From the IMG/VR virus record IMGVR_UViG_2778260992_000001: 64,000 nucleotides of DNA. One strand, 5' to 3'. Made by a program: the position numbers and the translations under genes. The DNA comes from a virus. Lineage: Duplodnaviria; Heunggongvirae; Uroviricota; Caudoviricetes. The notes under the pieces are model-generated. The model searched no databases. It was not told the DNA's origin and worked only from the letters and a program-made list of their open reading frames with translations. The first letter of the stretch is position 1. Each line of letters begins with the position of its first letter. Positions 19,924 to 31,964 of this stretch are shown piece by piece.

Positions 19924-20075
19924 TCGTTATCCTATGATAATGGTTTCACTTTGAGATTGTCATTTTTCATAGCCAAAGCTGATGTTTGTGGAAGGTGGAT
20001 TGATAAACGGATGCGTATTTAGGTTATACAAGTGAGAAAATTGATAATATATAAAAGCGATTTTTATGTGATGGA

Positions 20076-23628: not shown

Positions 23629-24003
23629 ATGGGACTTGATATCTATATCGAGACGCAGCCTAAAAACGATCTGAATAACGAGGCATCCAGAAAGCAGGTT
23701 GCTTACTTCCGTAAGTTCAATGCGCTCGTTGGGTGGATGGAGCGCAACGTAGGTGAAGTCGAAAATTGTGAGCTTTTAGAATTAACGATGAATGACATTT
23801 GTTTTCTGAAGGCTCATTTGATGCACATAAACGAAAGTAATTGCGAAGAGTACTTGCCTACCCGGGAAGGTTTTTTCTTCGGCAGTCAGGAGTACGATGA
23901 AGGTTACTGGCATGATGTGGGGCAGTTGAAAGAGCTTGTGGAAGATCTGATTAAGAACCACGACTTTCACAATAACAGACTGACCTTCTGCGCCTGGTGG
24001 TAA
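23629..24003 (+). CDS. hypothetical protein
   Basis: ATG 23629 with RBS aaggaaacc; 124 aa. Confidence 0.45.
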   Translation: MGLDIYIETQPKNDLNNEASRKQVAYFRKFNALVGWMERNVGEVENCELLELTMNDICFLKAHLMHINESNCEEYLPTREGFFFGSQEYDEGYWHDVGQLKELVEDLIKNHDFHNNRLTFCAWW

Positions 24004-24005
24004 AT

Positions 24006-24149
24006 ATGGGCGATTTCAAGAAACGCCTGAAGGAAAGAGCCGAGATGGTCAGAAAGCAAAACGCCTCTTCTGTCATCAGATACGCAAGGCAGTTTAGTCG
24101 CAACAACAAATCAGTTGAGGAAAAGATCCTTAGCGTAATCGGGCGATAA
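24006..24149 (+). CDS. hypothetical small basic protein (47 aa)
   Basis: ATG 2 nt after upstream stop, followed by hairpin; below the track length cutoff. Confidence 0.25.
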   Translation: MGDFKKRLKERAEMVRKQNASSVIRYARQFSRNNKSVEEKILSVIGR

Positions 24150-24154
24150 TTATT

Positions 24155-24178
24155 AAGGCCACCAGCATTGGTGGTCTT
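24155..24178 (+). terminator. terminator-like hairpin (repeat copy 1)
   Basis: aaggccaccagcattggtggtctt; near-identical copy at 24626. Confidence 0.45.
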
Positions 24179-24302
24179 AAATGACTTTTAATAACCGAAG
24201 GTTAGTTTGAAACCTGGCTATCAACTTCCATAACCTTTCTTGTGTATTCAGCCTGTATTAACTTCTTTTATGCCTTATCTACACTGCGATAATTACACCA
24301 AC

Positions 24303-24320
24303 AAGAAAACAACATGTTTA
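24303..24320. promoter_or_regulatory. palindromic operator-like site, class 1
   Basis: aagaaaacaacatgttta with conserved upstream flank gataattacaccaac. Confidence 0.5.
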
Positions 24321-24332
24321 CGCAGTTAGGAT

Positions 24333-24620
24333 ATGCTCATGACTGATTTCACCATTACCCCTAAAGCACAAAATGTATTTCTTGAATCATGGCTGGACTT
24401 GCCGGAAACAGAACAGCAAGAAATGGATCATGTGGATTATGACGAGCAGGTAAGCACGCGATTCTTCCACTTTGAGGGATGCGTTTACGACATTGTCGAC
24501 TTCATGCGAGATGACCGCTTCCCTGAATGGCACGCAAGCTATCCACTAAACGCCTTTGCCATGCTGATGATCCGTGTGGATGATTCAGGGGATACCATCG
24601 ACATCGGTCTGCTCCACTAA
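24333..24620 (+). CDS. hypothetical protein
   Basis: 95-aa ORF, RBS aggat. Confidence 0.45.
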   Translation: MLMTDFTITPKAQNVFLESWLDLPETEQQEMDHVDYDEQVSTRFFHFEGCVYDIVDFMRDDRFPEWHASYPLNAFAMLMIRVDDSGDTIDIGLLH

Positions 24621-24625
24621 AGGCT

Positions 24626-24649
24626 AAGGCCACCAGCATTGGTGGCCTT
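24626..24649 (+). terminator. terminator-like hairpin (repeat copy 2)
   Basis: aaggccaccagcattggtggcctt. Confidence 0.45.
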
Positions 24650-24787
24650 AAATGACTATCTTGTTTCCCGCAGGCTAAAAACACCAACCTCTTACCTCCA
24701 GGCAACCGACAAACCCACCTGTTCCCGTCCGGCTACCGTAACTTTCCACTTTGACGCCTTATTCGTACAACGATAATTAACACCAAC

Positions 24788-24807
24788 AAGAAAACAATTT
24801 GTTATTT
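24788..24807. promoter_or_regulatory. palindromic operator-like site, class 1
   Basis: aagaaaacaatttgttattt with same upstream flank as the 24303 copy. Confidence 0.5.
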
Positions 24808-24824
24808 ACGATAAGGAATTAATC

Positions 24825-25307
24825 ATGAATTTTATCGCTACTGTAAACGCACCCGCACATGGCAATATCGCTGTAACGTTCTCTGACATTGAAAAACGAG
24901 TACTTGGTGCATGGCGCGACAATGAGACGGTAGAACTGTCAGCACAAGAAAAATGCATTATTGCACGCGACATCATTGGCAATCGTCGTTACTCGCGGGT
25001 ATTTGAAAAAGCGTATGTGGTAAATTCTGGATTCGGAACGTTCGTCTTTCCGGTGCGCTCCGGGCGATTCTGCCAGTCCAAGCTGATTGAGTTCGCTACG
25101 CAGATTTCTGTCTGGATTAAAACTCAATCGTCGTTCAAATTTTCCGACGATGAAGCAGTATCGCAGGGGATGCGGATCGCCAACAATGCAATTAAATGCA
25201 AAAACATTACGTATACCGCTGGCGTTGATACATGGAAACTGTTTTGCGCTAACTTTATGCTGAATGTATACGCAAGCAACCGCATCCACATCCTTGATGG
25301 CGTGTAA
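24825..25307 (+). CDS. hypothetical protein
   Basis: 160-aa ORF, RBS aaggaat. Confidence 0.5.
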   Translation: MNFIATVNAPAHGNIAVTFSDIEKRVLGAWRDNETVELSAQEKCIIARDIIGNRRYSRVFEKAYVVNSGFGTFVFPVRSGRFCQSKLIEFATQISVWIKTQSSFKFSDDEAVSQGMRIANNAIKCKNITYTAGVDTWKLFCANFMLNVYASNRIHILDGV

Positions 25308-25923
25308 CTGAGAAGAGGGCCAGAAACGGCCCTTTCTCTATAGCCACCAGCTGCCGCAGGGAAATTTTCAGAAACGGCGAGGAACGTATTCATGAGCCGA
25401 CGGGAAACGGCCAGGATTTTTTCGGGAAACGGCTGCATTCGCCTTTATGTAGAAAAAACATCGGGAAGCTGGTGGAATCCAACCAGCGGTTGTCGGACAG
25501 GTGAGCGGGGAAAATTATGATGACTTTCGTCACCTGAGACATCCAGATTTCTTTCGTAGCATAATCACATACGTGATTAAGTGGTGTGATTATGTGAAAA
25601 ATCACGCGCACATAATACGCGAGCGGATACAGAACAAAACAAAATGCCGATCCGCACCGACAAATAAACGCGGATCACATAGCAAGACTAAAAGCCAATG
25701 ATTAACCATACTCTATAGCGCAATATAACGCGTTTTAAGCGCGTTAATGTGTTAAGTAATGGGTATGTACTGGCAAGGATATAAAAGCGCGTCTATGGCG
25801 TTATTTTGGTGCTTATTTTTATGTTGTTGGAGTGAGTTAAAGACAATAAAAAACGCGCCATTGATGGCGCGTTATTGTGGAAGTATTGGAAACGAAAAAA
25901 GCGCCCATAGTGGGCGCTCGATT

Positions 25924-26154
25924 TTATTTATGTAAACTGATTTCAAATCCCATTTCTACAAACGCTTTCAGCATTAAAAATATATCAGCGTCGTTCACGT
26001 CTGCTTTTTTTCGCTCCTGGTCGCTCAATAAGTCAATTTTGCGCGTCGTTTCATCTATAAGCTCGACTGCGCGCCCAGCGTAACCAGCGATCCCAGCGAT
26101 GCGATTAACATAATATTCGTTATGGACGTTAACGCCAGCGATAAGAACAAACAT
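25924..26154 (-). CDS. hypothetical small protein
   Basis: 76-aa ORF in AT-rich minus-strand cassette; preceded and followed by gcgcccatagtgggcgc hairpins. Confidence 0.4.
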   Translation of the reverse strand: MFVLIAGVNVHNEYYVNRIAGIAGYAGRAVELIDETTRKIDLLSDQERKKADVNDADIFLMLKAFVEMGFEISLHK

Positions 26155-26174
26155 GATTAAGCTCCTTAAAAAAA

Positions 26175-26423
26175 TTAAATAGAATTTTGAAGTTTTCCAA
26201 TTAATGCGCTTAAACGTAAGTATTCACGTTTGCGCTTGCAATCTCGCTTGCTGTTAAGCAAATCAGAAAACGTAAAATTTAATTGGTCGCGTTGCGCGAT
26301 TAAATCATCGATTAATTCTAGTTTATAAGCGCGATACTTTGCGCGATATTCCGCGCGGATCTTGTCATAGCTGACCATTTTCAAAGCTCCTTTAAAGCGC
26401 CCATAGTGGGCGCTTGATTCCAT
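26175..26423 (-). CDS. hypothetical small basic protein
   Basis: 82-aa ORF, K/R-rich. Confidence 0.4.
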   Translation of the reverse strand: MESSAHYGRFKGALKMVSYDKIRAEYRAKYRAYKLELIDDLIAQRDQLNFTFSDLLNSKRDCKRKREYLRLSALIGKLQNSI

Positions 26424-26426
26424 TAA

Positions 26427-27077
26427 TTACGCTTTGAAAGCATCAGCTAAATAATTGTAGAAATCATTTTTAATGAAGCGATATTGCTGAGTACCAGCTT
26501 TCGCGCTCCCAGCTCCTTTGACTTTTTCAACAAGTCCAAGACGTTCGCAAAGATTGATCAACTGGTTGGCTTGAGTATAACCAGCGTCCAATTTAATTTC
26601 ACACGCTTTTTTAGCTTCATTCATTAAATCGAAAACAGCGCCATTAGTGAACGTGTCGATCTCGTCGTTAATCATATCGATTAAAGCGAATACACGAGAT
26701 CCAGACATATCAGCGATGGAATAAACGCATTTACCAGATTTAATTGATTTAACCAGATAAACCAGTTTTTCCAGAGAATAACTATTAGTCATTGCATCAC
26801 GGAAAAATACTTCTGGCGCTTGTTTGCTTGCTTTAATCGCATAGTAGAAAACAGAGCATAATTTTTCGTCTTCTACTGCGTTTACGACGTTGTTGATGAA
26901 GTAAGCAAGTTTAGTGGTCGCAGCTTGCATATTTGCTTTGTCTGCTTTAGTGTGCGTACCATTTTTATAATGTTCGTTATATGTTTGAGTTGCCAGATCT
27001 GCTTTTTCGCGCAGTTCATCGGATACAATGGAAGCAGCTTCAATGATGGATTTTTTAGAAATGATAATGTTAGCCAT
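26427..27077 (-). CDS. hypothetical protein
   Basis: 216-aa ORF, RBS aaggaaaaatt on minus strand. Confidence 0.5.
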   Translation of the reverse strand: MANIIISKKSIIEAASIVSDELREKADLATQTYNEHYKNGTHTKADKANMQAATTKLAYFINNVVNAVEDEKLCSVFYYAIKASKQAPEVFFRDAMTNSYSLEKLVYLVKSIKSGKCVYSIADMSGSRVFALIDMINDEIDTFTNGAVFDLMNEAKKACEIKLDAGYTQANQLINLCERLGLVEKVKGAGSAKAGTQQYRFIKNDFYNYLADAFKA

Positions 27078-27360
27078 GATAATTTTTCCTTATGTAAATT
27101 TAAAATTTATTGTCGTTAGCGTCTTCGCTTTCGACGAGTTCAATTATCGATATGCGAAAAAAGATTGCAAGTGTTTTTTTTAAATTTTTTGCAGGGATGA
27201 AAGTCCTAGAAATAAAAGCGAGATCGTCGAAGGTGTTCCCTAAATAAATAATCGATTGCGGCTTTAGACCTTATATATATTTAGGTTATTTGATTTGTAG
27301 ATATAAAGAAGTGATGTGAAAAATAATAACCGGACTTAGCCGGTTATTAACCTTATAGAT

Positions 27361-27669
27361 TTATTGAACAGAATCTACAGCCTTACGATTGGTGTCAAAT
27401 AGCGCATCAACGAACTGTGCCGATGACTCGCTAGATTCGCAATCCAACATTGCCCGTTCTTCATTTGCCACTTTCTTACACAGTTCTACATTCTCACCTA
27501 TCGCTTTTCCTGCTTTTACGGCTGCCGAAAATTGATACATGCAAACTGATACATTCTGAGACGTTGAGCACACGTCATTCATCAGCGACTGAATGACAGG
27601 CTTATAGTCCATTGCATTTGCCGCAACTGAGCAAAGTAAAAATAATGGTGGTAACAATATCGATTTCAT
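27361..27669 (-). CDS. hypothetical secreted Cys-containing protein
   Basis: N-terminal signal-peptide-like MKSILLPPLFLLCSVAANA; 102 aa with 5 further Cys. Confidence 0.5.
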   Translation of the reverse strand: MKSILLPPLFLLCSVAANAMDYKPVIQSLMNDVCSTSQNVSVCMYQFSAAVKAGKAIGENVELCKKVANEERAMLDCESSESSAQFVDALFDTNRKAVDSVQ

Positions 27670-27672
27670 AAC

Positions 27673-28197
27673 TCAAAAAGGCAAAATTCGTTCAACCCAA
27701 TCGAACAAAACAACTATTTTTCTACCGTTCTCGACACGTAGTGTAACCTGACAAGCATCTGCGCCTGCTGACACCCCCTCAATTTCACGGCCATCCGCCA
27801 TGTACACCCTTATAGATTTGTTTGCTTTGTAGGCTTGGTTGCAAATTGCAAAAAAATCGCGGCGTGATGGCCGATTATCGACATAATCAGGGTGAACTGT
27901 TAGTCGACCTTTGAAATCGTGAGCGATACTGTCAACCACACCTGATTCAATTGTACTAATGCGTTCAAGTGGGAGCCTTATACGATTTTCTTTGTCAAAA
28001 GGGGCTGGGCAAAGGTCAACTTTGTTACGAGATGGCATGAGGCCATAAACGTACATGCAAAACGCCTGGCCATCTTCGAGAGTGACCCTTACAGGAATTT
28101 GTTCTCTGCGCCAGAACATCAGTAGTTTTTCAACGTTAGTGTAATCTCGCGGCCAGAGTTCAGCTTGGATACCGTAGGTAATATCTTTGGTTGTCAT
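27673..28197 (-). CDS. hypothetical protein
   Basis: start placed at internal Met (MTTKDITYG) so as not to overlap upstream lipoprotein gene; 174 aa. Confidence 0.4.
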   Translation of the reverse strand: MTTKDITYGIQAELWPRDYTNVEKLLMFWRREQIPVRVTLEDGQAFCMYVYGLMPSRNKVDLCPAPFDKENRIRLPLERISTIESGVVDSIAHDFKGRLTVHPDYVDNRPSRRDFFAICNQAYKANKSIRVYMADGREIEGVSAGADACQVTLRVENGRKIVVLFDWVERILPF

Positions 28198-28201
28198 GTC
28201 A

Positions 28202-28624
28202 TCACAGAGTTGTTGGCAGAATGTCGATGTCACCAGAATTGCTGGTGAACACCCTGAACGCTTTTGTGTCTCCATTCTTCAGAGTCGTTTCTCGCTCTTG
28301 ACGAGCGGGGTTTAGAGCACATAAACCTGCACCTTCAAGAGATGCACCCACAATTAATTCTCCGGCATTTAAATGAAAAGTCGCTTTTTCGCCTGTAGCC
28401 AGTTTTGCGACAGTTTCGCCATTGATGAAAATGGAAGCATCACATCCAGCTCCTACAAAACCTGTGTCTCTCATTACCACCAACGTAGCTGGCGCTGCGC
28501 TTTGATACTTGAACACTTTGGCCTGCGGTGCTGGTTTGGCGTCATGGATTGATATTGGACGTGATTGGCACGCGGTAAGCATCAACACTGGTAACGTTAG
28601 TAGAGGGAGAAGCGAGTATTTCAT
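28202..28624 (-). CDS. putative lipoprotein
   Basis: MKYSLLPLLTLPVLMLTAC: signal peptide with lipobox L-T-A-C. Confidence 0.55.
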   Translation of the reverse strand: MKYSLLPLLTLPVLMLTACQSRPISIHDAKPAPQAKVFKYQSAAPATLVVMRDTGFVGAGCDASIFINGETVAKLATGEKATFHLNAGELIVGASLEGAGLCALNPARQERETTLKNGDTKAFRVFTSNSGDIDILPTTL

Positions 28625-28692
28625 GTTAGTTTTAGAACAGAAAGTGAACAGTATGGGAGACTTCATCTTTGTCTCCCTAATTGATAGCGTGA

Positions 28693-28971
28693 TTATTTTA
28701 ATCTGCTTAATAGCGTTTCAAGATCTTCCTTTGTCATATTAGAGTTCTCATAGATACGCATGATTTTCTCACGAGTCTTAGCGGAAGCCCCGACAGAAGA
28801 TATAACCTTGTCAAAGTCGGCCATTGTCAATTGTTCCAGAATGGTATTTATGACTTCAGCCTTAGACATTTTGATATTTTTTTCTTTTAGTTTCACTTGA
28901 AACTTTCCAAGTTTGTCATTGGCCTTATCAGACAATGCTACCTGACAGTAAGTTGTTTTCTTTTCACTCAT
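28693..28971 (-). CDS. hypothetical protein
   Basis: 92-aa ORF directly downstream of helicase gene on minus strand. Confidence 0.45.
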   Translation of the reverse strand: MSEKKTTYCQVALSDKANDKLGKFQVKLKEKNIKMSKAEVINTILEQLTMADFDKVISSVGASAKTREKIMRIYENSNMTKEDLETLLSRLK

Positions 28972-28973
28972 AA

Positions 28974-30533
28974 CTAATCTCGTTTCAGAACTCCAAAATC
29001 GAATGCTCCATCAATAGGCAATACACCTTCTGCAAAGCCAGGTGTGGTGTCGATGATGTGTTTTCGCTCATAAGAGTGAGACAACAGGTATTTGTTGCTA
29101 ATGTCAATGAAATCAGTGATAAAACACACGTTTGCCTGATTTTTTTTGGCTCGTAAGCCACGACCGACACGCTGTCTCATTTCAACTTCTGCTTTCCCAC
29201 CACCAGCAAGAATGACCGCACCAACGCTTGGCACATCAACACCAACATCCAGAATAGTCGAGCCTATTAAAACATCTATTTCACCAGACGCTAAACTATT
29301 CAGCTTTGCTTGCCTTGTCGTCTGGTTAGATTCCCCATAGATGAAATCAACTTTAAGACCTGACTCCTTCATCATCTCCATCAGGATTTGCCCGTGGCGT
29401 TTAAGACGAACCAGAGTCATGCAGTTGAGTGAATGTTGCTTATAAAGCAATGCCTCGCGCACTATGGCCTCGTTACGTCCCAAATTATACACGATCCCCA
29501 ACTGATAAGCCTTTTGGTAGGCGGTGCTCATACCAACTCTAAAATTAAGGTGTTTGTTGGCAAGTTCCGCCTTGATTCTGACCTCGTCTGGCTTGTAAGC
29601 AACTTTATGATAAAGGAAGTACGGTTTTGCCAGAATGCCTCGATCAATCAGGTACTTTTCTGTGACTTTAATTTCAATTCGACCGGCCACAGCCATCAGA
29701 CGCATGTTGGCTTCTGTAGAATCCTTCATGAACGGCGTGGCCGTAAGCGCCAGACGATAGTCTGCGTTCACACATAATCTGGCAATGTCATAGAAATTAG
29801 AGCCTGAAGACTCATGCGCTTCTTCCAGAATAAGCAGAGACACACTTGAAAGGAAGCGTTTCACTAGCTCCCGACGTTTGAGGTGGTAGCTCTTTTTATC
29901 TGGTGTTGCATCGCGTGGTGGTTCTTCAAGGAAACTTGCCAGAGTTTGAACTGTAGCGACGTTGATATGTCGTGATACCTGGAACTCACCCGAGCCAATG
30001 ACTCCAACCTTTTGGTCTTTTAACCACGGTTCGCCATTTTCGGCGCGGTAGTCGATGGATCTCTGGAAGTTTTCGGCCATTTGAAACATCAGAACAGAGC
30101 GGGTTGTTAAAAATAATGTCATTCGACCGATACGTGCAGCTGCTTTGCAGGCAACGTTAGATTTCCCGCCACCAGTAGCGATCTGCGCAATCATCATTCC
30201 CTCTCGAACCAGTGTTTCCACAGTCTGATCCTGATATGCATAATCAGGATTGTATGGGAATGGGTTAACCGCCGGATTTGGTTTACCAAGCGCCGGGGCT
30301 TTGTCTTTGCGGATATGAACACATTTGATGCCCGCCTTGTTCAAGTTCGCCGCTACAGGCTTGGCAAAGCCAGCAGGGAACGAGTTTTTACTCCAGTTGA
30401 ACATCGTGCTTGTGCCCTTCCAGTCGCCAGTCTCGACTTCGTAGCTCAACATTTGCTGCACCAGTTGCTTTACCTTGTCATCTGCGCCAGAAATAAGCGC
30501 ATTTACTGCGTTAGATACAATCCGAACAGTCAT
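28974..30533 (-). CDS. superfamily-2 DExH-type helicase
   Basis: motif I ATGGGKS, motif II LILEEAHE, motif III LTATP, C-terminal RecA-like domain with QRVGRGLR (motif VI). Confidence 0.7.
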   Translation of the reverse strand: MTVRIVSNAVNALISGADDKVKQLVQQMLSYEVETGDWKGTSTMFNWSKNSFPAGFAKPVAANLNKAGIKCVHIRKDKAPALGKPNPAVNPFPYNPDYAYQDQTVETLVREGMMIAQIATGGGKSNVACKAAARIGRMTLFLTTRSVLMFQMAENFQRSIDYRAENGEPWLKDQKVGVIGSGEFQVSRHINVATVQTLASFLEEPPRDATPDKKSYHLKRRELVKRFLSSVSLLILEEAHESSGSNFYDIARLCVNADYRLALTATPFMKDSTEANMRLMAVAGRIEIKVTEKYLIDRGILAKPYFLYHKVAYKPDEVRIKAELANKHLNFRVGMSTAYQKAYQLGIVYNLGRNEAIVREALLYKQHSLNCMTLVRLKRHGQILMEMMKESGLKVDFIYGESNQTTRQAKLNSLASGEIDVLIGSTILDVGVDVPSVGAVILAGGGKAEVEMRQRVGRGLRAKKNQANVCFITDFIDISNKYLLSHSYERKHIIDTTPGFAEGVLPIDGAFDFGVLKRD

Positions 30534-30579
30534 AAACCTCTTTCCTTAGTGCCTTTTGTATGTTATTTGGCTATTATAA

Positions 30580-30598
30580 TAAGTAAGTGATTACTTAG
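30580..30598. promoter_or_regulatory. palindromic site, class 2
   Basis: taagtaagtgattacttag immediately upstream of first ParB-like gene. Confidence 0.45.
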
Positions 30599-30615
30599 TG
30601 GATTGTAGCAATAAA

Positions 30616-31296
30616 ATGGATGTAAAAATCACGATTTTGCAGGTTGATGTTGCCAACCTTCGCCCGAATACCTGGAACACCAATTCGGTTGGTGCGCAGA
30701 ATTTTGAAAAACTGAAAGGTTCTATCGAAAAATTGGGCTTTTTTAAGCCAATTTTGGCTCGTGAACTTGAAGATGGATTTTTTGAAATCCTCGGCGGTGA
30801 ACATCGCTGGCGTGCTGCTATTGAGCAAGGAATTTCAACGGTTCCGGTGCTTTCTGTGGGCAAAATTAGCGATGTCGTAGCTAAACAGATGTCACTGGTG
30901 GACAACGAGCGATACGGTGAAGACGACCAAATCGCATTGCAACGCTTCATTGAAGAAATTCAGTCAGAACTTGACTATCAACTGTTTGAAATCGCTCCGT
31001 ATGACGACGAAATCTCGATGGTTTTAGCAAAAGAGGCGGCAATCGACCTTGAAGCACTGGAGGCGTTGTCTCGTGGTAGTGATGAGCCTGTCGATACCGA
31101 CAAACGAGAGAAAACCGAACGTGTGGGTGCGGAACATCAGACCATGCGCTTCAAAGTAACTTTCGATGCGTCAGATCGTGTTGCAGAAACCATAAAAAAC
31201 ATCATCAAAGAGCAGGCTATTAACACCGGTAATGAAATGGAGAACGCTGGTGAGGCTCTGGTGTGGCTGGTCGACTACTACAAGGAGCGTATGTAA
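30616..31296 (+). CDS. ParB N-terminal-domain (ParB/Srx nuclease-like) protein 1
   Basis: LGGEHRWRAAIEQGISTVPV ParB-N signature; start ATG 30616 (alternative GTG 30598). Confidence 0.6.
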   Translation: MDVKITILQVDVANLRPNTWNTNSVGAQNFEKLKGSIEKLGFFKPILARELEDGFFEILGGEHRWRAAIEQGISTVPVLSVGKISDVVAKQMSLVDNERYGEDDQIALQRFIEEIQSELDYQLFEIAPYDDEISMVLAKEAAIDLEALEALSRGSDEPVDTDKREKTERVGAEHQTMRFKVTFDASDRVAETIKNIIKEQAINTGNEMENAGEALVWLVDYYKERM

Positions 31297-31964
31297 TGAC
31301 CAAAAAGTTTGAAATCGTATATCGCGACCCGGCAGATCTTATTCCCTATGAGATGAATGCCAAAAAGCATGATGAACAGCAGATCAGAGATCTGGCCGCA
31401 GCCATTAAAAAGCGCGGATTTGACCAGCCAATTACGGTCGATAAGAACGACGTAATTATTACTGGCCACGGCCGCCGTGAGGCTGCAATTTTTGCTGGAC
31501 TTGAGCGCGTACCGGTTATTGTTCGCGATGATCTCAGTGATGACGAGGTTCGTGCGAAGCGCCTTGAAGATAACCGACTTGCCAGCATTGATTACGATGC
31601 AATTAAGCTACAGAAAGAGCTTGAGTCGCTTGTTCTGGACGATATCGAGGTTTTCGGCTTTGAAGAGCGTGAGTTGAATGTTCTCGTTGGCAGTATGACA
31701 GAAGAAATGGACACCGACTCGCTAGTTATCGATCTTGGCGAAGAAACTAAACGACAGAAGGATGAACACACCGAGATCAGTCGTGAAGTTGCAGCGGAAG
31801 AAGTACGTGTTGTCGACGTATTGGGCTTTAAAACGCTCCCTGCTGGCTCTGCCATTGTTGTTGGTGATTTGCTTGCCCATATGGAAGAAATGACGGGAGA
31901 AAGCGGGGTAGACGCATTTGTGGCATATGCGGAGAAGATCTCTTCCGGGGAGATGGCTGCATGA
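31296..31964 (+). CDS. ParB N-terminal-domain (ParB/Srx nuclease-like) protein 2
   Basis: ITGHGRREAAIFAGLERVPVIV ParB-N signature; TAATG coupling, RBS aaggag. Confidence 0.6.
   Translation: MTKKFEIVYRDPADLIPYEMNAKKHDEQQIRDLAAAIKKRGFDQPITVDKNDVIITGHGRREAAIFAGLERVPVIVRDDLSDDEVRAKRLEDNRLASIDYDAIKLQKELESLVLDDIEVFGFEERELNVLVGSMTEEMDTDSLVIDLGEETKRQKDEHTEISREVAAEEVRVVDVLGFKTLPAGSAIVVGDLLAHMEEMTGESGVDAFVAYAEKISSGEMAA

Follow-up and report, generated by a model that had tools for sequence, protein, structure and literature searches.

The virus record IMGVR_UViG_2778260992_000001 (Duplodnaviria; Heunggongvirae; Uroviricota; Caudoviricetes) is the source of the 64,000-nucleotide stretch of DNA analyzed here, which we call the window. 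Positions 25924 to 28971 of the window carry seven minus-strand genes that an original prediction, made from the letters alone, had described as an AT-rich cassette of genes of unknown function and as a candidate moron or superinfection exclusion system. We found instead that the region is unremarkable, being a conserved segment of a phage-plasmid family that is well known, with two accessory genes for envelope proteins and an orphan regulator of the FljA family. The explanation that we favor overall, and hold to be moderately probable, is that the region belongs to a conserved block encoding an FljA-family RNA-binding repressor, which would have the host fliC mRNA as its default target, and that the block would bring about lysogenic conversion.

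All seven minus-strand open reading frames (ORFs) were found at or near the positions first proposed for them (Table 1), and each matched a PHROG family with an E value of 1e-39 to 1e-139. The view that their functions are unknown stands for the others, to which no function could be assigned, but not for the 174-amino-acid (aa) protein, which is predicted to be cytoplasmic rather than targeted to the envelope and which, by its profile match, is a full-length member of the FljA family. The PF03614 profile (“Repressor of phase-1 flagellin,” FljA; Flag1_repress) scored 282.4 bits against a cutoff of 24 (E value, 1.5e-84), with residues 5 to 171 of the protein aligned to profile positions 1 to 170 of 170, that is, from end to end. 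As a stand-in for canonical FljA of S. Typhimurium LT2 in our comparisons, we used a flagellin-linked homologue, P0112, to which the 174-aa protein is 39% identical over 172 aa (E value, 9e-41). On a chromosomal contig (L019), the P0112 gene immediately follows the 3′ end of a flagellin gene (whose product ends in QANQVTQNVLSLLR), among genes whose products have the Pfam domains of accD, folC, dedD, cvpA, and purF. Salmonella enterica FljA, encoded in the fljBA operon, and FljA(z66) of the S. Typhi linear plasmid pBSSB1 belong to the same PF03614 family and are of similar size (~174 to 179 aa). Unlike Salmonella FljA, the 174-aa protein is encoded by a phage-plasmid backbone gene that lacks a flagellin partner, occurs also in nonflagellated hosts, and falls into separate clades. 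The fljB-fljA arrangement is not seen, as the gene upstream of the 174-aa gene is the lipoprotein gene or, in relatives, another nonflagellin gene.

A scan of genome contigs for canonical FljA returned phage-plasmid loci only. One homologue, P0074, which is encoded on a 5.2-Mb E. coli contig, was considered as a flagellin-locus copy and rejected; its neighborhood consists of fragmented phage-plasmid genes.

In structure prediction, the 174-aa protein models confidently as two tandem Hfq/Sm-like domains, with the fold recognized in the monomer model as an N-terminal helix and, after it, a strongly bent antiparallel sheet of five strands. Hfq and LSm proteins have one Sm domain, whereas the 174-aa protein is predicted to have two in one chain, and it shares no significant sequence similarity with Hfq. 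Since BLASTP of its two halves against each other also gave no significant similarity, the tandem architecture is taken from the structure model alone. A fold search of BFVD with this model returned only single-domain Sm-like proteins and spurious long matches, and a sequence search of the PDB found no solved structure of the FljA family.

To place the gene in its setting, we compared the region with known elements. From 25700 to 29000, the window is 98.2% identical to Escherichia phage CMS-2020a over the full length and ~80% identical to Salmonella phage SSU5. Because of these matches, and because the module was seen only on plasmids of ~110 kb, the whole window can be assigned to a phage-plasmid of the SSU5/pHCM2/pMT1 type. 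The subregion from 27080 to 28980 was found at an identity of at least 99% on ~80 plasmids of ~110 kb (84 in PLSDB) and, with a query cover of at least 80%, in 84 of 5,426 complete E. coli genomes, with no copy on a chromosome. SSU5-like plasmids, which are nonmobilizable and ~105 to 115 kb in size, keep the backbone order of parB, the helicase gene, the 92-aa gene, the FljA-like gene, and the 216-aa gene. We compared 13 related loci, among them SSU5, phage Cyrano, Yersinia pestis pFra, three kinds of Klebsiella plasmid, Kluyvera, Buttiauxella, and E. coli pCP53-113k, and all 13 had the same order: the helicase gene diverging from parB, then the 92-aa gene, zero to three variable genes, the FljA-like gene, an optional small gene, the 216-aa gene, and the 67-aa or the 76-aa gene. 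The helicase, 92-aa, FljA-like, and 216-aa genes were found wherever the contig of the relative allowed.

By synteny, the region is the far end of a conserved block that reads leftward from the helicase gene, next to parB. The minus-strand block does not end at 28971, as had been proposed, but runs on through the helicase gene to 30533. By the same comparison, the 92-aa, 174-aa FljA-like, 216-aa, and 67/76-aa genes are classed as backbone and the genes for the lipoprotein and the 102-aa secreted protein as accessory. SSU5 (SSU5_119 to SSU5_124), S. Typhi pHCM2, and Y. pestis pMT1/pFra share the order parB, helicase, 92-aa, lipoprotein, FljA-like, 216-aa, and small gene, with identities to the window of 93% for the helicase and 81 to 83% for FljA. 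The lineage of the window adds the 102-aa gene, which is absent from SSU5 and pFra and present in pHCM2, and the window carries both the 67-aa and the 76-aa genes, unlike these backbones.

The core status of the FljA-like gene is also apparent from its spread. Among PLSDB plasmids, the FljA gene was found in 831 (Klebsiella, 341; Escherichia, 229; Enterobacter, 92; Yersinia, 62; Salmonella, 60) and the 216-aa gene, with a like spread across genera, in 815; the lipoprotein gene was found in 421 and the 102-aa gene in 259. The ratio of nonsynonymous to synonymous substitution rates (dN/dS) for the FljA gene was 0.08 to 0.17 against the copies of SSU5, pFra, and Klebsiella, and the gene is under purifying selection. 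We therefore give little credit to the idea that the small genes are functionless ORFs, decaying or hitchhiking, and that FljA is a relic of an old capture of fljBA. The 76-, 67-, and 92-aa ORFs do lack a recognizable domain, and the 67-aa and 76-aa genes replace each other in relatives, but dN/dS values of 0.03 to 0.17 for the FljA, 216-aa, 92-aa, and lipoprotein genes (where estimable) already contradict a relic, the copies are intact and of full length in hundreds of plasmids from at least seven genera, and the fold of FljA is predicted with confidence. On this evidence, such a relic is highly improbable. Family membership, the predicted fold, synteny, core versus accessory status, and purifying selection are what the analysis establishes.

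SSU5-like segments also occur in records labeled as Gram positive, namely, a “Bacillota bacterium” metagenome-assembled genome (MAG; L008), a “Candidatus Fimivivens” MAG (L009), and P0079 (“Gemella morbillorum”); the helicases of the MAGs are 82 to 93% identical to that of the window. These labels most likely reflect binning or contamination, not true hosts. A 5.2-Mb E. coli contig, CP125919 (L003), has an SSU5-like segment in which the genes are broken into many short ORFs and FljA is 52% identical; this segment could reflect assembly errors or be an integrated copy in decay.

What the protein would do can be approached from its family. FljA prevents translation of fliC mRNA by binding to its leader (PMC2652032, citing Bonifield and Hughes 2003 and Yamamoto and Kutsukake 2006), and FljA(z66), which like the window protein is plasmid borne, blocks fliC translation, and transfer of a plasmid carrying fljA(z66) silences motility and turns motile E. 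coli nonmotile (PMC2652032). An RNA-binding fold, as modeled here, fits this published action. RNA binding, the identity of the target, expression in lysogeny, and any phenotype are what we infer, as follows. By homology, the 174-aa cytoplasmic protein would bind the leader of a target mRNA and block its translation, with the two tandem Sm/Hfq-like domains predicted to form the RNA-binding surface. In E. coli or another flagellated host, fliC mRNA would be the default target, and the plasmid-prophage would reduce both the synthesis of flagellin and motility. This effect and those of the lipoprotein and periplasmic protein would jointly alter the surface of the lysogen, which would amount to lysogenic conversion. 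We have fairly high confidence that the 174-aa protein acts as an RNA-binding translational repressor. The assignment of host fliC as its target is tentative and falls somewhat short of probable, and a target among phage-plasmid mRNAs or other host mRNAs is possible but less likely.

Several observations weigh against fliC as the selected target and against the conversion scheme built on it. The gene is intact in 341 Klebsiella and 62 Yersinia plasmids (those listed being from Y. pestis, e.g., pFra/pMT1). K. pneumoniae and Y. pestis are classically nonflagellated, and for this reason fliC cannot be the selected target in these hosts. A second, deeply diverged clade of the protein is almost confined to Klebsiella. 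FljA alleles diverge strongly between near-identical backbones in the same host species, which would be unexpected if all of them bound one conserved fliC leader. There is no flagellin gene in the window, tblastn with the N and C termini of flagellin having given nothing at an E value of ≤10; neither SSU5 nor pFra conserves the promoter predicted at 28692 to 28721, a hairpin taking its place in relatives; and our literature searches found no experiment, transcript, or RNA-binding data for any phage-plasmid copy of FljA.

The allelic divergence is clearest in pCP53-113k. Compared with the window, its helicase is 99% and its 216-aa protein is 98.6% identical, but its FljA is only 68% and its lipoprotein is only 60% identical. 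The divergent segment runs from 28723 to 27675, that is, from the end of the 92-aa gene through FljA, with ~70% DNA identity and two extra genes in pCP53-113k. This pattern indicates that FljA alleles have been swapped between near-identical backbones by allelic replacement.

Such replacement, as seen in phage immunity regions, is one of the points that speak for a different reading, in which the FljA-like protein serves the phage-plasmid as an intrinsic regulator or targets some host mRNA that is not fliC. As an intrinsic regulator, it would be a tandem-Sm repressor of an mRNA for maintenance, lysogeny, or lytic growth, with flagellin repression absent or incidental. The gene is core to the family (831 plasmids, as against 815 for the 216-aa gene), sits at a fixed place near the helicase and partition genes, and has no flagellin gene linked to it in the window; it is intact and under purifying selection in nonflagellated Klebsiella and in Y. 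pestis pFra; and the deeply divergent second clade holds the same syntenic position. Against this reading, we found no candidate for an intrinsic target. A search of the window for look-alikes of the E. coli K-12 fliC leader, which would mark an internal target of FljA, gave chance-level 12-mers only (E value, 0.28), no other searchable target motif being known, and the intergenic region downstream of the FljA gene does not covary with the FljA allele. (One such 12-mer, at 19924 to 19935, resembles the fliC Shine-Dalgarno region and was rejected as a target; it precedes only a 20-codon ORF.) Furthermore, fliC repression is the sole function shown for the FljA family (PMC2652032), and the plasmids may shuttle between flagellated and nonflagellated hosts often enough to retain the gene. 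We regard a regulator of this kind as a serious contender that nevertheless remains on the doubtful side, and we continue to prefer a repressor with fliC as its default target.

The relationships among the homologues bear on where the family came from. In a neighbor-joining tree, FljA proteins formed three clades, one flagellin linked, one comprising the main phage-plasmid group, and one comprising a second phage-plasmid group. Members of this second group, which are 30 to 38% identical by comparison of the loci and 32 to 45% identical to the window protein in the tree, are found almost only in Klebsiella and are encoded at the same syntenic position. The flagellin-linked clade is 26 to 30% identical to the second phage-plasmid clade, as against 39% between it and the window protein, and midpoint rooting joins it to the main phage-plasmid clade. 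Hints of a phage-plasmid origin are that, under this rooting, two deep phage-plasmid clades, with only 32 to 45% identity between them, bracket the flagellin-linked clade and that some 830 plasmids, including 341 from Klebsiella, have the gene as part of their core. It is conceivable, and in our estimate rather unlikely, that the family is at its root a phage-plasmid tandem-Hfq-like repressor that acts in flagellated and nonflagellated hosts, with flagellar FljA as a domesticated offshoot that was recruited along with a phage-type invertase.

The variable slots on either side of the FljA-like gene are filled in this window by the lipoprotein gene and by the 102-aa gene, which encodes a predicted 83-residue mature periplasmic protein with four Cys residues. 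The stop-to-start gaps around the FljA-like gene are 4 nucleotides (nt) on the upstream, lipoprotein side and 3 nt on the other, and because the gaps are this short, both accessory genes are probably cotranslated with it. In two Klebsiella plasmids of a common lineage, the slot between the 92-aa gene and FljA holds an opposite-strand gene of ~145 aa instead of the lipoprotein gene (L012 and L020), and after FljA there is a different 99-aa gene in L012 and a 102-aa homologue in L020; both slots would therefore act as exchange points for cargo genes.

The lipoprotein that had been recognized in the first description was borne out. Its signal peptide, MKYSLLPLLTLPVLMLTAC, has an L-T-A-C lipobox that fits [LVI][ASTVI][GAS]C, and the lipobox Cys19 is invariant in the 17 and 8 homologues of two alignments that include proteins of unrelated phages, as are two further Cys residues in the homologues. 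We therefore predict that the protein is a bacterial lipoprotein and a substrate of Lgt and LspA. In E. coli, a lipoprotein without Asp at the +2 position is sorted to the outer membrane. Since the residue at +2 after the lipobox Cys is never Asp, this rule suggests an outer membrane location. A weak, subthreshold resemblance to DUF2846 was seen in 13 of 17 members, and the structural model was poor and unusable, with a predicted local distance difference test (pLDDT) score of 49.5.

The lipoprotein gene is present in 7 of the 13 relatives. Its homologues lie between the C40 peptidase (K-type) and I-type tail genes in the HK97-like phages mEp390 and CharmingMan, in Pseudomonas aeruginosa siphophages (vB_Pae_CF53a), and in a 54-kb linear Klebsiella plasmid; a similar match was found in phage Fostie; and in Vibrio phage H20 (H20_0031), the homologue is directly downstream of the cI repressor gene and cooriented with it. 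The moron lipoproteins of lambdoid mEp390 (gp17), CharmingMan, Fostie, the vB_Pae_CF53a type, and H20 are of the same family, with 28 to 46% identity, but whereas homologues of the mEp390 or H20 type sit between tail genes K and I or after cI, the window gene sits between the 92-aa and FljA-like genes. Because it is an extra gene at unrelated positions in unrelated temperate phages, this gene family is moron-like, and the term “moron” as originally applied appears to fit it.

The second accessory product is the precursor of a small periplasmic protein. Its signal peptide, with an AxA site, keeps its character and varies in sequence among the Klebsiella, Salmonella (pHCM2), and E. coli homologues. 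The signal peptide had been correctly noted, but the protein has five Cys residues, not six: four in the mature part, which are invariant, and one in the signal peptide, which is not conserved. The gene behaves as a clean indel of ~311 bp between the FljA stop codon and the terminator, with the alignment jumping from 27675 (the FljA stop) to 27363 in SSU5, pFra, Cyrano, and pCP53-113k, all of which lack it. None of the 13 relatives has the gene, and the protein is confined to SSU5-like plasmids. Patchy presence with clean boundaries, as expected of morons, was found for the lipoprotein and 102-aa genes only, and not for the universal 92-aa, FljA, and 216-aa genes.

The region does differ from the rest of the window in composition, as had been reported. 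Its GC content is 40.1%, compared with a window mean of ~46.6% (standard deviation, 2.3; 3-kb windows), making it the lowest-GC 3-kb stretch, with only 0.1% of windows as low. Four stretches account for the low GC, namely, the genes for the 92-aa (35.5%), 216-aa (37.6%), and 67-aa (37.7%) proteins and the 283 bp of intergenic DNA from 27078 to 27360 (30.7%). The FljA-like (44.8%) and lipoprotein (47.3%) genes are near the window average, and, like them, the 102-aa gene (41.7%) is not clearly deviant from the mean. In SSU5, pFra, and a Klebsiella plasmid, where the local GC content is 49 to 50%, the 216-aa gene is again at ~40% and the intergenic region at ~31%, with FljA and the lipoprotein at 51 to 54%. 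Because the same pattern recurs despite the higher local GC, low GC is an old family trait of backbone genes and is uninformative about a recent import of the envelope genes. The intergenic region also stays at ~31% GC in pCP53-113k, as in SSU5 and pFra, whatever the surrounding GC content.

These results leave little room for the region as a single acquired AT-rich moron cassette whose envelope proteins block the receptor or DNA entry in superinfection exclusion. The lipoprotein and 102-aa genes are indeed present or absent among relatives, and both products are predicted to be exported and have invariant Cys residues. The lipoprotein family is also inserted in the tail tip cluster, just before I- and J-type genes, in HK97-like phages, Pseudomonas siphophages, and the linear Klebsiella plasmid, and after cI in H20. 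Positions of this kind are known to harbor superinfection exclusion lipoproteins (e.g., Llp and Cor) and genes expressed in lysogeny. Llp of T5 and Cor of phi80, N15, and T1 resemble the window lipoprotein in concept, as small phage lipoproteins; both are ~60 aa when mature, compared with ~121 aa for the window protein, and both sit near tail tip or receptor-binding genes, as the homologues of the window protein in other phages do.

However, no sequence or profile similarity of the lipoprotein to Llp or Cor was found in Pfam, NCBIfam, PHROGs, or PADLOC, nor was there any sequence match to Bor or TraT. None of the seven proteins had a significant match to an exclusion or defense family in PADLOC, Pfam, NCBIfam, or PHROGs, the neighboring helicase giving generic superfamily 2 (SF2) matches only; the proposal of an exclusion system thus finds no known family behind it. 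In addition, low GC resides in backbone genes and the envelope genes are average, four of the seven genes are core, with their order kept in 13 of 13 relatives, and the unusable lipoprotein model gives no help. We consider an imported exclusion cassette unlikely, and a role of the envelope proteins in exclusion or surface modification no more than plausible.

Table 1. Features of the region, in order of position in the window
Feature	Position	Strand	Remarks
Terminator-like hairpin downstream of the 76-aa gene, second of a tandem pair	25852..25873	-	9-bp stem with 6 G-C pairs, then T-run
34-nt repeat copy A, containing a terminator hairpin (25899-25919) immediately downstream of the 76-aa gene	25898..25931	-	Direct repeat, 88% identical to copy B; terminator scan
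76-aa protein	25924..26154	-	phrog_1585, E 5.5e-39; in 7/13 related loci
67-aa protein	26175..26378	-	phrog_6145, E 1.2e-46; profile covers residues 16-82 of the 82-aa reading
34-nt repeat copy B and hairpin, between the 216-aa stop and the 67-aa start	26394..26427	-	Direct and inverted repeat
216-aa backbone protein	26427..27077	-	phrog_1513, E 3.6e-139; 37.6% GC; 815 PLSDB plasmids
AT-rich intergenic region with promoter-like sites for the 216-aa unit	27078..27360	-	30.7% GC; includes terminator-like hairpin 27349-27324
Predicted 102-aa precursor of small periplasmic protein, accessory	27361..27669	-	phrog_9536; predicted cut after A19, mature 83 aa
174-aa FljA-family backbone protein, two tandem Sm/Hfq-like domains (model)	27673..28197	-	No flagellin partner
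Predicted 140-aa lipoprotein precursor, accessory	28202..28624	-	phrog_890; alternative start 28666 gives 154 aa
Predicted internal sigma-70-like promoter (TTGAAA-18-AATAAT)	28692..28721	-	Best-scoring site in scan, 10/12 matches; similarity break versus pCP53-113k at 28723
92-aa backbone protein	28693..28971	-	phrog_1466, E 5.3e-46; 35.5% GC; 13/13 relatives
SF2 (DEAD/ResIII) helicase, first gene of the minus-strand block	28974..30533	-	Pfam ResIII, DEAD, Helicase_C; synteny; divergent from parB at 30598

The block would be transcribed as two units, the first comprising the helicase gene, the 92-aa gene, a slot, the FljA-like gene, and a second slot before a terminator, and the second comprising a promoter, the 216-aa gene, and the 67/76-aa genes before further terminators. 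The predicted division between the two is the terminator-like hairpin at 27349 to 27324, which follows the 102-aa gene, and the level of similarity of the intergenic region around it tracks the 216-aa block, not the FljA block. A promoter-like site precedes the lipoprotein gene; since it is not conserved in relatives, it is a prediction only. A scan for hairpin-plus-T-run sites found 16, compared with 5.4 ± 2.4 in shuffled sequences, so the hairpins noted earlier are real and enriched; they do not, however, bracket the region as a whole, as the repeated hairpin sequence, AGCGCCCAYWRTGGGCGCT, within the 34-nt repeat brackets only the pair of 67-aa and 76-aa genes. Relatives carry either the 67-aa or the 76-aa gene. 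Since the window has both and the repeats flank the pair, one of the two genes may have been added by recombination at the hairpin, as this arrangement suggests.

Between the convergent 160-aa (plus-strand) and 76-aa (minus-strand) genes lies a 616-bp stretch (25308 to 25923) with no convincing ORF and at least five further minus-strand hairpin-plus-T-run sites (25677 to 25605 and 25534 to 25519). A noncoding gap of similar size, conserved only in parts, is found at the same place in relatives, and the gap could host a small RNA or a cis-acting site. An Rfam scan of 24000 to 31500 gave only subthreshold chance matches.

The remaining genes are less informative. Among 1.84 billion proteins, the 216-aa family makes up just 24 representative clusters, and no function for it emerged from Pfam, NCBIfam, PADLOC, a PDB profile search, or an exhaustive representative search. 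Likewise, no significant domain match was found for the 92-, 76-, and 67-aa proteins. The N-terminal half of the 92-aa protein, whose gene lies near the partition genes, resembles by eye a ribbon-helix-helix pattern (short strand, helix, helix), with no profile support. The ORF of the 67-aa protein can also be read as 82 aa from a start at 26423. The start at 26378 is most likely the correct one, because the profile and the homologues are 67 aa long, GGAG precedes the ATG by 8 nt, and the repeat hairpin falls inside the longer reading. The PHROG label “MIT family metal ion transporter (CorA)” on this family (SSU5_119) is implausible for a 67-residue soluble protein and appears to be a misannotation propagated from the SSU5 record.

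The homology to FljA itself is not new: in public databases, the SSU5 gene is annotated as “putative repressor of phase 1 flagellin,” and a protein attributed to S. Typhi is labeled “flagellar synthesis: repressor of fliC.” A full-text literature search found no paper discussing or testing FljA homologues in phage-plasmids. What is added here is the core status of FljA in ~830 plasmids, including those of nonflagellated hosts, its purifying selection and allelic mosaicism, the tandem Sm/Hfq-like model, and the recognition that the lipoprotein belongs to a moron-type family.

Phage-plasmids of the SSU5 type are common among clinical Enterobacteriaceae: the module is present in 84 of 5,426 complete E. 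coli genomes, and FljA is present in 831 plasmids, including pHCM2 and pMT1/pFra. The predicted tandem Sm/Hfq-like fold would give the RNA-level action of FljA a structural basis. If the FljA homologue silences flagellin, carriage of such an element would change motility, the H antigen, immune recognition of flagellin, and sensitivity to flagellum-dependent phages. If it does not, its strict conservation in nonflagellated hosts would suggest that phage-plasmid biology involves a regulator acting on RNA that has yet to be described and that a textbook component of flagellar phase variation may have come from phages.

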